Positions 8,607-34,670 of a stretch of 64,000 nt of DNA are shown here, one piece after another. Both the position numbers and the translations under genes were made by a program. This stretch comes from Eledone cirrhosa (lineage: Eukaryota): assembly GCA_964016885.1 (NCBI GenBank), contig OZ024750.1:6572001-6636000 (forward strand). The letters run 5' to 3'. Within the stretch, counting starts at the first letter, position 1; each line of letters begins with the position of its first letter. The notes below the pieces were generated by a model. It was given only the letters and a program-made list of their open reading frames with translations. It made no database searches and was not told the DNA's origin.

Positions 8607-8715
8607 TGACTTTATAATCGTCATAGTTCTAATTGTGTATATTTCTAAAGCGATATAAAAGTTATATATATATAATATGATTTCTATGTTCAATATATAA
8701 TATATACAATTTATA

Positions 8716-8820
8716 TTATGTTATATATATATATAAAATATATATATATATATAAAATATATATATATATATAAAATATATAAAATATATATATATATAT
8801 AAAAAATATATAAAATATAT

Positions 8821-8918
<98 letters not shown>

Positions 8919-8924
8919 ATATAT

Positions 8925-9003
<79 letters not shown>

Positions 9004-9437
9004 TATATATATATAAAATATATATATATATATATAAAATATATATATATATATATAAAATATATATATATAAAATATATATATATATATAAAATATATA
9101 TATATATATAAAATATATATATATATATATAAAATATATATATATATATATATAAAATATATATATATATATAATATATAAAATATATATATATAAAATA
9201 TATATATTTTATATATATATATATATAATATATATATATATATAATATATAATATATAATATATATATATAAAAAATATATATATATATTTAAAATATAT
9301 ATATATATTTAAAATATATATATATATATAATATATATATATATATAATATATAATATATATATATATATATAAAAAATATATATATATATATATAAAAT
9401 ATATAAAATATATATACATAAAAAATATATATATATT

Positions 9438-9504
<67 letters not shown>

Positions 9505-9505
9505 T
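8716..9505. repeat. ~790-bp (TA)n tract punctuated by short A runs
   Basis: Direct reading; abuts the left end of the HHR array. Confidence 0.95.
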
Positions 9506-11626
9506 AAAAACAAATAACGAAACGAAATTAAATTTCGTTTCGTTTGTAACTCACTTTTGTATGACTGACGCTCAAACAATTAAGTCAAAGATGTACATCC
9601 ATATATGTATACTGAAATACTAGTATGTATATGAATACACAAACGTATACATATGTAGATGTACCAAGTTTTTTTTTTCACTGATCACTTTACTGTGAGT
9701 GGCCAGCTATTCTGTATGTAAACACACAGACAAACCGGTTTTTAGAGTCATACTGGTTTTTGAGGAAACACCTTTCCTCTATTCTCCAGAAAGCCAGACA
9801 AGGAATATTGAACTAGTTTCGTTGTTGTTACAACTCATCAGCAATATTTACCTATCTTCCGGCCTCTCTAGAGAATCGTAAAAGCACATATCGCTATATG
9901 CTTTTTCTATGAAAATTAGTAGTGGGCAGACCAACTTGCATAGAGTGTGAGTAAGTACCGGTTCAACGGAGACGATAAAAACAAATAACGAAACGAAATT
10001 AAATTTCGTTTCGTTTGTAACTCACTTTTGTATGACTGACGCTCAAACAATTAAGTCAAAGATGTACATCCATATATGTATACTGAAATACTAGTATGTA
10101 TATGAATACACAAACGTATACATATGTAGATGTACCAAGTTTTTTTTCACTGATCACTTTACTGTGAGTGGCCAGCTATTCTGTATGTAAACACACAGAC
10201 AAACCGGTTTTTAGAGTCATACTGGTTTTTGAGGAAACACCTTTCCTCTATTCTCCAGAAAGCCAGACAAGGAATATTGAACTAGTTTCGTTGTTGTTAC
10301 AACTCATCAGCAATATTTACCTATCTTCCGGCCTCTCTAGAGAATCGTAAAAGCACATATCGCTATATGCTTTTTCTATGAAAATTAGTAGTGGGCAGAC
10401 CAACTTGCATAGAGTGTGAGTAAGTACCGGTTCAACGGAGACGATAAAAACAAATAACGAAACGAAATTAAATTTCGTTTCGTTTGTAACTCACTTTTGT
10501 ATGACTGACGCTCAAACAATTAAGTCAAAGATGTACATCCATATATGTATACTGAAATACTAGTATGTATATGAATACACAAACGTATACATATGTAGAT
10601 GTACCAAGTTTTTTTTTTCACTGATCACTTTACTGTGAGTGGCCAGCTATTCTGTATGTAAACACACAGACAAACCGGTTTTTAGAGTCATACTGGTTTT
10701 TGAGGAAACACCTTTCCTCTATTCTCCAGAAAGCCAGACAAGGAATATTGAACTAGTTTCGTTGTTGTTACAACTCATCAGCAATATTTACCTATCTTCC
10801 GGCCTCTCTAGAGAATCGTAAAAGCACATATCGCTATATGCTTTTTCTATGAAAATTAGTAGTGGGCAGACCAACTTGCATAGAGTGTGAGTAAGTACCG
10901 GTTCAACGGAGACGATAAAAACAAATAACGAAACGAAATTAAATTTCGTTTCGTTTGTAACTCACTTTTGTATGACTGACGCTCAAACAATTAAGTCAAA
11001 GATGTACATCCATATATGTATACTGAAATACTAGTATGTATATGAATACACAAACGTATACATATGTAGATGCACCAAGTTTTTTTCACTGATCACTTTA
11101 CTGTGAGTGGCCAGCTATTCTGTATGTAAACACACAGACAAACCGGTTTTTAGAGTCATACTGGTTTTTGAGGAAACACCTTTCCTCTATTCTCCAGAAA
11201 GCCAGACAAGGAATATTGAACTAGTTTCGTTGTTGTTACAACTCATCAGCAATATTTACCTATCTTCTGGCCTCTCTAGAGAATCGTAAAAGCACATATC
11301 GCTATATGCTTTTTCTATGAAAATTAGTAGTGGGCAGACCAACTTGCATAGAGTGTGAGTAAGTACCGGTTCAACGGAGACGATAAAAACAAATAACGAA
11401 ACGAAATTAAATTTCGTTTCGTTTGTAACTCACTTTTGTATGACTGACGCTCAAACAATTAAGTCAAAGATGTACATCCATATATGTATACTGAAATACT
11501 AGTATGTATATGAATACACAAACGTATACATATGTAGATGTACCAAGTTTTTTTTCACTGATCACTTTACTGTGAGTGGCCAGCTATTCTGTATGTAAAC
11601 ACACAGACAAACCGGTTTTTAGAGTC
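9503..11626 (-). mobile_element. Retrozyme-like tandem array, left arm (~4.5 x ~469-bp HHR-containing units)
   Basis: Unit periodicity is 469/471/468 bp (from the identical 60-aa pseudo-ORF positions). HHRs on the minus strand at 9804-9848, 10273-10317, 10744-10788, 11212-11256. Confidence 0.9.
9804..9848 (-). ncRNA. Canonical minimal type-I hammerhead ribozyme (first of 8 identical copies)
   Basis: AATATTG-CTGATGA-GTTGT AACA ACAAC-GAAA-CTAG-TT-CAATATT: 7-bp stem I, intact core, 5-bp stem II, palindromic stem III ACTAGT, GUU cleavage triplet. Confidence 0.92.
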
Positions 11627-13439
11627 TTTTATCGTCTCCGTTGAACCGGTACTTACTCACACTCTATGCAAGTTGGTCTGCCCACTACTAATTTTCATAG
11701 AAAAAGCATATAGCGATATGTGCTTTTACGATTCTCTAGAGAGGCCGGAAGATAGGTAAATATTGCTGATGAGTTGTAACAACAACGAAACTAGTTCAAT
11801 ATTCCTTGTCTGGCTTTCTGGAGAATAGAGGAAAGGTGTTTCCTCAAAAACCAGTATGACTCTAAAAACCGGTTTGTCTGTGTGTTTACATACAGAATAG
11901 CTGGCCACTCACAGTAAAGTGATCAGTGAAAAAAAACTTGGTACATCTACATATGTATACGTTTGTGTATTCATATACATACTAGTATTTCAGTATACAT
12001 ATATGGATGTACATCTTTGACTTAATTGTTTGAGCGTCAGTCATACAAAAGTGAGTTACAAACGAAACGAAATTTAATTTCGTTTCGTTATTTGTTTTTA
12101 TCGTCTCCGTTGAACCGGTACTTACTCACACTCTATGCAAGTTGGTCTGCCCACTACTAATTTTCATAGAAAAAGCATATAGCGATATGTGCTTTTACGA
12201 TTCTCTAGAGAGGCCGGAAGATAGGTAAATATTGCTGATGAGTTGTAACAACAACGAAACTAGTTCAATATTCCTTGTCTGGCTTTCTGGAGAATAGAGG
12301 AAAGGTGTTTCCTCAAAAACCAGTATGACTCTAAAAACCGGTTTGTCTGTGTGTTTACATACAGAATAGCTGGCCACTCACAGTAAAGTGATCAGTGAAA
12401 AAAACTTGGTACATCTACATATGTATACGTTTGTGTATTCATATACATACTAGTATTTCAGTATACATATATGGATGTACATCTTTGACTTAATTGTTTG
12501 AGCGTCAGTCATACAAAAGTGAGTTACAAACGAAACGAAATTTAATTTCGTTTCGTTATTTGTTTTTATCGTCTCCGTTGAACCGGTACTTACTCACACT
12601 CTATGCAAGTTGGTCTGCCCACTACTAATTTTCATAGAAAAAGCATATAGCGATATGTGCTTTTACGATTCTCTAGAGAGGCCGGAAGATAGGTAAATAT
12701 TGCTGATGAGTTGTAACAACAACGAAACTAGTTCAATATTCCTTGTCTGGCTTTCTGGAGAATAGAGGAAAGGTGTTTCCTCAAAAACCAGTATGACTCT
12801 AAAAACCGGTTTGTCTGTGTGTTTACATACAGAATAGCTGGCCACTCACAGTAAAGTGATCAGTGAGAAAAAAAAACTTGGTACATCTACATATGTATAC
12901 GTTTGTGTATTCATATACATACTAGTATTTCAGTATACATATATGGATGTACATCTTTGACTTAATTGTTTGAGCGTCAGTCATACAAAAGTGAGTTACA
13001 AACGAAACGAAATTTAATTTCGTTTCGTTATTTGTTTTTATCGTCTCCGTTGAACCGGTACTTACTCACACTCTATGCAAGTTGGTCTGCCCACTACTAA
13101 TTTTCATAGAAAAAGCATATAGCGATATGTGCTTTTACGATTCTCTAGAGAGGCCGGAAGATAGGTAAATATTGCTGATGAGTTGTAACAACAACGAAAC
13201 TAGTTCAATATTCCTTGTCTGGCTTTCTGGAGAATAGAGGAAAGGTGTTTCCTCAAAAACCAGTATGACTCTAAAAACCGGTTTGTCTGTGTGTTTACAT
13301 ACAGAATAGCTGGCCACTCACAGTAAAGTGATCAGTGAAAAAAAACTTGGTACATCTACATATGTATACGTTTGTGTATTCATATACATACTAGTATTTC
13401 AGTATACATATATGGATGTACATCTTTGACTTAATTGTT
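11627..13439 (+). mobile_element. Retrozyme-like tandem array, right (inverted) arm (~3.9 units)
   Basis: Reverse complement of the left-arm unit. HHRs on + at 11759-11803, 12228-12272, 12696-12740, 13168-13212. Ends at ttaattgtt followed by ataaaatatat. Confidence 0.9.
11759..11803 (+). ncRNA. Canonical minimal type-I hammerhead ribozyme (first right-arm copy)
   Basis: aatattg ctgatga gttgt aaca acaac gaaa ctag tt caatatt, read directly on +. Confidence 0.92.
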
Positions 13440-13818
13440 ATAAAATATATATTTTCACCAAAACTAAAATATCGTATATAACAGTTGTTATTCATCCATA
13501 CTAAAACTGCATTAACAGCCGCCCCCTTCCTTGCTTTTGTGTGTTTTATATACATGATACTGAAGACATGAAAATATCATGCATCTGAATAGGTGACTAT
13601 ATCACCTTAATAAGTGGATGTGTGATACATTTTCTACCCGTTTTTGTTTTCTATTTTTTTTTCTTACCAATAAATATCGATGTTTAATGATATATCGATA
13701 TATATACGAATATTTTTACTTATTTATTGTCACGTTGCCTCCCTTTGATCGTTGAGCTAATCGATAGTGGGGATTCAGGGTAACGATTCAAGAAATTTCT
13801 AATATACATAATCATATG

Positions 13819-14269: not shown

Positions 14270-14440
14270 AAAATTGTTTCTACTTTTGACTCAAACCCAG
14301 CAATTATCGCAGTGTATTACTGGTACTTTATTTTATCGACCCCGTAAGGGTGAAAGGCAAAGTCAACCTCGGCGAGATTTGCACTCAGATCGTAAAGGGA
14401 CGTAATTCTATGATGCAAAGCATAGTATCCGACCCTCTAC
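14270..14440 (-). mobile_element. SINE S1 copy
   Basis: Reverse complement of the S1 core (ctggtactttattttatcgaccccgtaagggtgaaaggcaaagtcaacctcggc). Confidence 0.8.
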
Positions 14441-32759: not shown

Positions 32760-34555
32760 TGAAGACTTCTGGTGTCATTGGCCCCAGGATCACCTCCCTA
32801 CTCACCACCATCGGCACCGAGTTGGCTACCCACAGTAGCGGAGACTTCTGGTGTCCTTGGCCCCAGGATCACCTCCCTACTCACCACCATCGGCACCGAG
32901 TTGGCTACCCACAGTAGCGGAGACTTCTGGTGTCCTTGGCCCCAGGATCACCTCCCTACTCACCACCATCGGCACTGAGTTGGCTACCCACAGTAGCGGA
33001 GACTTCTGGTGTCCTTGGCCCCAGGATCAACTCCCTACTCACCACCATCGGCACCGAGTTGGCTGCCCACAGTAGCGGAGACTTCTGGTGTCCTTGGCCC
33101 TAGGACCACCTCCCTGCTCACCACCATCGGCACCGAGTTGGCTACCCACAGTAGCGGAGACTTCTGGTGTCCTTGGCCCCAGGATCACCTCCCTGCTTAC
33201 CACCATCGGCACCGAGTTGGCTACCCACAGTAGCGGAGACTTCTGGTGTCATTGGCCCTAGGACCACCTCCCTGCTCACCACCATCGGCACCGAGTTGGC
33301 TACCCACAGTAGCGGAGACTTCTGGTGTCATTGGCCCTAGGACCACCTCCCTACTCACCACCATCGGCACCGAGTTGGCTACCCACAGTAGCGGAGACTT
33401 CTGGTGTCCTTGGCCCTAGGACCACCTTCCTGCTCACCACCATCGGCACCGAGTTGGCTACCCACAGTAGCGAAGACTTCTGGTGTCATTGGCCCTAGGA
33501 CCACCTCCCTACTCACCACCATCGGCACCGAGTTGGCTACCCACAGTAGCGGAGACTTCTGGTGTCCTTGGCCCTAGGACCACCTCCCTGCTCACCACCA
33601 TCGGCACCGAGTTGGCTACCCACAGTAGCGGAGACTTCTGGTGTCATTGGCCCTAGGACCACCTCCCTACTCACCACCATCGGCACCGAGTTGGCTACCC
33701 ACAGTAGCGGAGACTTCTGGTGTCCTTGGCCCTAGGACCACCTCCCTGCTCACCACCATCGGCACCGAGTTGGCTACCCACAGTAGCGAAGACTTCTGGT
33801 GTCATTGGCCCTAGGACCACCTCCCTACTCACCACCATCGGCACCGAGTTGGCTACCCACAGTAGCGGAGACTTCTGGTGTCCTTGGCCCTAGGACCACC
33901 TCCCTACTCACCACCATTGGCACCGAGTTGGCTACCCACAGTAGCGGAGACTTCTGGTGTCCTTGGCCCTAGGACCACCTCCCTACTCACCACCATTGGC
34001 ACCGAGTTGGCTACCCACAGTAGCGGAGACTTCTGGTGTCATTGGCCCTAGGACCACCTCCCTACTCACCACCATCGGCACCGAGTTGGCTACCCACAGT
34101 AGCGGAGACTTCTGGTGTCCTTGGCCCTAGGACCACCTCCCTACTCACCACCATCGGCACCGAGTTGGCTACCCACAGTAGCGAAGACTTCTGGTGTCAT
34201 TGGCCCTAGGACCACCTCCCTACTCACCACCATCGGCACCGAGTTGGCTACCCACAGTAGCGGAGACTTCTGGTGTCCTTGGCCCTAGGACCACCTCCCT
34301 ACTCACCACCATTGGCACCGAGTTGGCTACCCACAGTAGCGGAGACTTCTGGTGTCCTTGGCCCTAGGACCACCTCCCTACTCACCACCATTGGCACCGA
34401 GTTGGCTACCCACAGTAGCGGAGACTTCTGGTGTCATTGGCCCTAGGACCACCTCCCTACTCACCACCATCGGCACCGAGTTGGCTACCCACAGTAGCGG
34501 AGACTTCTGGTGTCCTTGGCCCTAGGACCACCTCCCTACTCACCACCATCGGCGC
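32760..34555 (+). repeat. 79-bp satellite (~23 units) derived from CRE endonuclease-coding DNA
   Basis: Unit ggagacttctggtgtccttggccctaggaccacctccctactcaccaccatcggcaccgagttggctacccacagtagc; starts every 79 bp from 32761 to 34499. Confidence 0.95.
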
Positions 34556-34670
34556 AGAGTTGGTTACATGTGAGCCTCGCGAGCTGGAATGGCTCTTCCA
34601 GAGCGTCTCCCTGACCATCCACCAGGGAAACGCCTTCTCTATTCTGTCCGCCGGGGCCACGATGGGGTCA
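34499..34670 (+). mobile_element. CRE-clade retrotransposon 3' remnant continuing from the last satellite unit
   Basis: ETSGVLGPRTTSLLTTIGAELVTCEPRELEWLFQSVSLTIHQGNAFSILSAG; homologous to 15762-16012. Confidence 0.8.

Follow-up and report, generated by a model that had tools for sequence, protein, structure and literature searches.

Animal non-LTR retrozymes are non-coding tandem repeats of low GC content (under 45–50%) whose units each contain a type I hammerhead; they lie dispersed over thousands of loci, are flanked by duplications of more than 4 bp and share their genomes with Penelope-like elements (PLEs) (PMC7229834; bioRxiv 10.64898/2026.07.22.740005). PLEs have so far been proposed as their mobilizers from this co-occurrence and from pLTR homology, and their tandem copies have been ascribed either to copying of RNA circles or to later local amplification; PMC7229834 proposes tandem cDNA made from circles with PLEs as candidate mobilizer, while bioRxiv 10.64898/2026.07.22.740005 demonstrates for Xenopus a homology to the pLTR and considers local amplification. 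The array analyzed here agrees with these retrozymes in all of the listed features, and its unit of 469 nt lies at or just above the known range of 150–450 bp. However, the accessible text of these two sources describes no head-to-head arms, fixed paired ends or tail (in a term search, the words "tail" and "orientation" were absent from the bioRxiv text), and among publications judged by title or by the beginning of the abstract, mostly excluding subscription papers, no such footprint was reported for retrozymes. Circular RNA and self-cleavage, features of known retrozymes, are putative in the present case.

Such a footprint is familiar from EN+ PLEs. Neptune-type PLEs, which target (TA)n, and Poseidon PAc resemble the present arrays in having an inverted, 5'-truncated arm, a tail at one end only, an AT-rich target, a duplication of about 10 bp and a hammerhead in the repeat (PMC8557442, PMC3846280, PMC11167929); the tail of 30–40 bp and the duplications of 8–10 bp that accompany the inverted arm are documented in PMC3846280 and PMC8557442. 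Both strands are cut and extended by the anole PLE protein, which favors AT-rich DNA and uses two adjacent internal start sites whose spacing equals the tail; ribozyme cleavage is dispensable for it, and a dimer is predicted (PMC11167929). In contrast to these elements, the present family lacks a coding frame, has up to about 30 full units per arm and bears a tail of 70 nt. Twin priming of L1 (PMC2912911) likewise involves two cDNAs from both target strands, an inverted arm, microhomology at the junction and one duplication around the whole, but here there is no poly(A) end, both priming sites are internal and fixed, the arms overlap the template many times and the second priming site does not set the junction. 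Non-autonomous PLEs of the Chlamys group, such as MRC1 (PMC8557442), are similar as non-coding PLE passengers with multi-copy head-to-tail insertions; they are algal, and their 3' end resembles an autonomous partner.

In the 64,000-nucleotide stretch of Eledone cirrhosa DNA that we analyzed (the window), a tandem repeat search detected two arrays following a (TA)n-rich target tract at 8663–9506 (no strand). We number the unit in the hammerhead sense with u1 at window position 11627, so that the reference monomer occupies 11627–12095 on the plus strand. The left arm (9504–11626, minus strand; 2123 nt, 4.5 copies) runs from u232 to u6 and has its 3' end at the fixed site A; the right arm (11627–13439, plus strand; 1813 nt, 3.9 copies) runs from u1 to u404 and has its 3' end at the fixed site B. 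The left end alone bears a "tail" of 71 nt (9504–9574, minus strand; u405–469 plus u1–6), a rule that holds family-wide. Between the two fixed end sites, once per unit, lies a near-perfect 29-nt hairpin (u435–463; 9516–9544, minus strand). The 5' ends of both arms meet at the inversion junction, 11626/11627 (u232/u1). Target site duplication (TSD) copies of 13 bp are found on the plus strand at 9494–9506, overlapping the element end by 3 nt, and at 13439–13451; the TSD is weak by itself at this locus, as the same 13-mer occurs 18 times in the left (TA)n tract.

The unit has a GC content of about 0.35 and aligned with the Rfam HH9 model at 37.7 bits (E 9.4e-08), below the gathering score of 52; at gathering level, Rfam gave no match in the whole window. 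The type I hammerhead motif of the reference monomer (11748–11819, plus strand) has its core at 11766 (u140), a predicted cut after 11796 (u170) and a stem III that is short and palindromic, as in the type I hammerheads described from metazoans (PMC4209133). Eight copies of the motif are present in the window array, four per arm. In the loci fetched from the genome, the core is intact in 304 of 307 full copies, of 530 motifs, 527 bear a cleavable triplet (GTT, GTC or GTA) at the cut, and stem II contains a T-A/A-T swap. The unit is non-coding and without LTR structure, the sole long stop-free frames that touch it entering from the (TA)n tract, and the length of its poly(A) differs from copy to copy. 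Judged by its sequence, the array is thus a non-coding, hammerhead-bearing non-LTR retrozyme.

An end-pattern search of the 3.0-Gb genome returned at least 2,094 left-type (site A) ends. We examined 142 loci: 32 from a unit search (those scored among 362 candidates, not selected by end type), 80 stretches that contain the A-end sites listed first for contig 1, and, from 65 listed B-end sites, 30 for which no A partner was listed. One row was dropped (L100, the same event as L099), and L097 and L108 were added by hand. Unit identity to the window unit ranges from 86% to 100% among loci, and the longest arm measures 14.3 kb or about 30 units. Apparently single-armed are 32 of the 141 distinct loci, six of which bear a B stub of 7–12 nt. 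Several loci show peculiarities of their own. The 14.3-kb arm (L230+L074; G000:C1:5738093-5752746) carries partly periodic variants and lies opposite an arm of 346 nt. L099 and L100, at 55.97 and 55.99 Mb of contig 1, contain the same two-armed insertion 17.7 kb apart, as a local duplication or an assembly duplicate.

Two-armed arrays are arranged head-to-head with their 3' ends outward, and the outer 3' ends fall at two sites about 70 nt apart, A (u1–7) or B (u396–406), with 73 of 75 scored A ends at u6. Both sites are internal to the unit, and neither is a poly(A) end. Among 108 two-armed arrays (excluding L206, which has a 10-nt A stub), 97 were A/B, one was B/B and none was A/A, while six were irregular and in four the far end was not reached; in the set not chosen by end, pairing was A/B in 23 of 23. 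B/B arrays are invisible among A-chosen loci and A/A arrays among B-chosen ones, but independent choice of ends would leave half of each chosen set homotypic. One-A-one-B pairing of the outer ends is thus near-strict. The sole B/B array (L213:1611-3327) has an extra 34-nt B-ended piece upstream. The arrays sit in (TA)n, and duplications of 12–13 bp enclose both arms together; a duplication of at least 12 bp that was not pure (AT)n was found at 19 of 36 informative loci, compared to 15% of 620 mismatched pairs. The element represents a novel non-LTR retrozyme family, whose arrays combine the footprint of PLEs with a pairing rule that is nearly strict. This arrangement bears out the original prediction that two cDNAs were primed from opposite target strands.

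The companion idea that both arms were copied from one template is likewise favored. When each arm was compared with all arms at 66 loci, the partner arm was strictly nearest in 34, tied for nearest in 22 and not nearest in 10, and partner arms diverge by 0.3% as opposed to 4.7% from the median other arm. In the window array, the commonest variant at u337 is absent from all full copies of both arms. Arms longer than about one unit are frequent (A, 55 of 86; B, 54 of 86). The 5' ends of the arms coincide with the ribozyme cut in 5 of 172 cases (3.3 expected), i.e. without excess, and arms span up to 15 predicted cut sites, which argues for a continuous template, either a circle or an uncut multimer, and led us to reject template jumping between cut linear monomers. 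In young arrays, identical copies are numerous on either inverted arm (C14b, 9+7; C1_144, 7+4, with shared rare variants, where "private" variants are private only among the about 140 sampled loci). A variant repeated in only some copies of an array (C9, C4_335, L074) would not be produced by a uniform monomer circle and points to a mixed template or to later duplication. With poly(A) lengths excluded as likely noise, the order of variants along both arms fits one RNA at L106; the other arrays misfit or are uninformative. We consider it likely that the arrays were inserted as ready-made multimers, from two cDNAs primed by a PLE enzyme.

At the junction in the window, the geometry was as originally described: both arms carry TTTTAT (u1–6), the left arm ending at u6 and the right arm starting at u1, the unit position at which the right arm ends lies 71 nt before that of the left arm, and the junction is not a symmetric fold-back but a blunt, asymmetric join with neither microhomology nor filler. 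From this register, the original prediction had argued that a chance match on a 469-nt circle is improbable and that one cDNA terminated where the other was primed, as would follow if, in the manner of L1 twin priming, a cDNA ran up to the other's priming site and thereby set the junction. Neither argument withstood comparison with other arrays. As site A is fixed family-wide, the left end carries no free choice; a match within 6 nt has a probability of 13/469 and was found in 3 of 104 other two-armed arrays, where 2.9 are expected, and junctions are scattered. Register as a general rule is therefore rejected. (B/B, irregular and B-chosen single-armed loci were excluded from this test.) In the other direction, the start of the A arm and the B end are at most 6 nt apart in 6 of 96 arrays (2.7 expected, p 0.05) and at most 12 nt apart in 10 of 96 (5.1 expected, p 0.03), but this weak excess has a p of 0.11–0.20 under a length-aware null and of 0.13 against B-arm lengths; the densest interval (12) lies inside the uniform 95% bound, and for register in either direction 9 of 96 arrays compare with 5.2 expected (p 0.08). 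Individual cases fit such a stop: two B arms (L085, L128) begin precisely at u7 and a further one at u10, and two of the three matches in the direction of the window locus agree to the nucleotide, as was spotted post hoc; in addition, A arms start near B with lengths near 60–83 and 530–545 nt, one of them exactly (L215). However, most arms run past the partner's site once or many times, and the internal priming site of L1 is variable (PMC2912911), whereas both sites are fixed here. A junction register set by L1-type twin priming is thus improbable; that of the window locus, which by itself is without importance, is likely a product of chance, while occasional stalling at the partner's site is perhaps a minor route.

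Alternatively, the inverted arm might arise by fold-back or self-switching of one cDNA that is then copied back, a form of self-priming that has been proposed for PLEs (PMC3846280). Copying back would yield a single haplotype on both arms, the arm lengths in the window permit it, and 6 of 105 junctions are symmetric. The other 99 are asymmetric, two fixed ends are left unexplained, and 20 of 97 A/B arrays have arms whose lengths break the copy-back limit on the second arm in both copying orders; fold-back is thus excluded as the sole route and very improbable as an explanation of the family. A somewhat better, albeit still unlikely, candidate is a short two-armed insertion that later grew by unequal crossing-over or slippage, in a satellite-like manner, as discussed for tandem arrays in bioRxiv 10.64898/2026.07.22.740005. 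The variants confined to some copies of one arm (C9, C21, C1_252, L074) would fit local duplication, as would the varying poly(A) lengths. Yet identical copies abound on both of the inverted arms in young arrays, more than half of the arms of either type exceed about one unit, and such growth may lengthen arms but does not make fixed ends. An origin of the junction from misassembly or a chimeric read seems barely conceivable. No bridging contig was present among those listed for four sequencing runs, possibly from other individuals than the assembled one, which proves nothing, and the family's inverted junction occurs in a short-read contig of run X4; like architecture with matched duplications at over 100 loci upholds the original argument against an artefact for junctions of this kind as a class.

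Other junctions are consistent with end-joining of two cDNA ends: 57 of 70 filler-free junctions have 1–11 nt of microhomology (47% in random joins), and 16 of 86 junctions contain filler. At L145 (992–1061), 65 nt of unrelated, GC-rich sequence are captured at an otherwise symmetric junction (u184/u184).

Taken together, we regard it as probable that the element is a retrozyme with fixed A and B ends that was likely made by a PLE RT/GIY-YIG enzyme priming two cDNAs, with the register in the window likely due to chance. The PLE mechanism is suggested by the A/B pairing, the 12–13 bp duplication, the (TA)n target, the haplotype shared by both arms, PLE copies with like arms (see below) and the two-site priming of PMC11167929. 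An enzyme dimer would make a 12-nt staggered cut in (TA)n; of its subunits, one would start at A and the other at B, flanking the u435–463 hairpin; each would copy upstream for a random distance, over many units, from a circular monomer or an uncut multimer; and the two cDNA ends would finally be united by end-joining with 0–5 nt of microhomology or a short filler. More tentatively, and with somewhat less than even confidence, we suggest that a PLE dimer carries out two-way rolling-circle reverse transcription of one circular ribozyme RNA of 469 nt, with each subunit using a fixed start site of its own next to the hairpin and one strand of the 12-nt staggered cut, for up to 30 turns and with occasional stalling at the partner's start. 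If this is true, thousands of arrays would be a record of the process, and the tail and inverted arm of PLEs would be explained. Counting against the PLE mechanism is the retrozyme tail of 70 nt, compared to 30–40 nt in the PLE publications, with 64 nt in one PLE family of this genome; in addition, start-site use in vitro was alike on both strands in PMC11167929, whose accessible text does not report pairing per molecule. The single-armed loci and the partial-copy variants likewise speak against the PLE-dimer explanation, as does the failure to find a PLE that resembles the unit in 50 GIY-YIG stretches (see below).

The insertion footprint itself is thus PLE-like, with inverted arms, one tailed end, a 12-bp duplication and a (TA)n target, and it encloses whole multimers of one haplotype within a single duplication. 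For the PLE dimer model, the one-A-one-B pairing yields a sharp prediction, and u395–u10 defines a minimal RNA element of 100 nt that is fit for the existing in vitro assay.

PLEs with comparable arms are present in the genome. Of 10,596 GIY-YIG candidates, 150 were scored. PLE copies at L185, L189, L193 and L199 contain RT plus C-terminal GIY-YIG frames, lie in (TA)n and combine a tailed arm with an inverted arm that lacks the tail, with a tail of 64 nt in L185, L189 and L193 and a shorter one in L199. In 50 GIY-YIG stretches from the candidates, searched by blastn and with a natural-copy profile, we found no partner PLE or pLTR resembling the unit; as far as these stretches go, the retrozyme would differ from EN+ PLEs with regard to pLTR homology and from the MRC1-like elements with their autonomous partner. 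The sole unit-like matches in these stretches were retrozyme insertions. In a young, Neptune-like PLE family (L180:2775-9100, L181, L185, L189, L193), copies are up to 98.9% similar, open frames are long (938 aa for an RT/GIY-YIG frame in L180), and the two ends are separated by 64 nt. A short motif just inside the tail is common to three PLE families.

Further repeats were observed along the way. A sister family of about 420–510 nt, about 70% alike and also in (TA)n (L193:1890-2460, L174:2700-3264, L190:8100-9000), has its own hammerhead, in which the stems are changed but still paired; its copy at L193 ends at a site homologous to A, and that at L174 has two arms and a left end that is B-like. 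Flanked by (TA)n tracts at L181:7009-7918 is a 459-nt tandem dimer of unrelated sequence, which may be another small retroelement family. In the window, a dispersed repeat of 170 nt, SINE-like by look, lies at 14270–14440, with eight further partial copies in the window and another adjoining the array at L033, and a GC-rich tandem array of 79 bp occupies 32763–34567 (22.8 copies, 96% matches).
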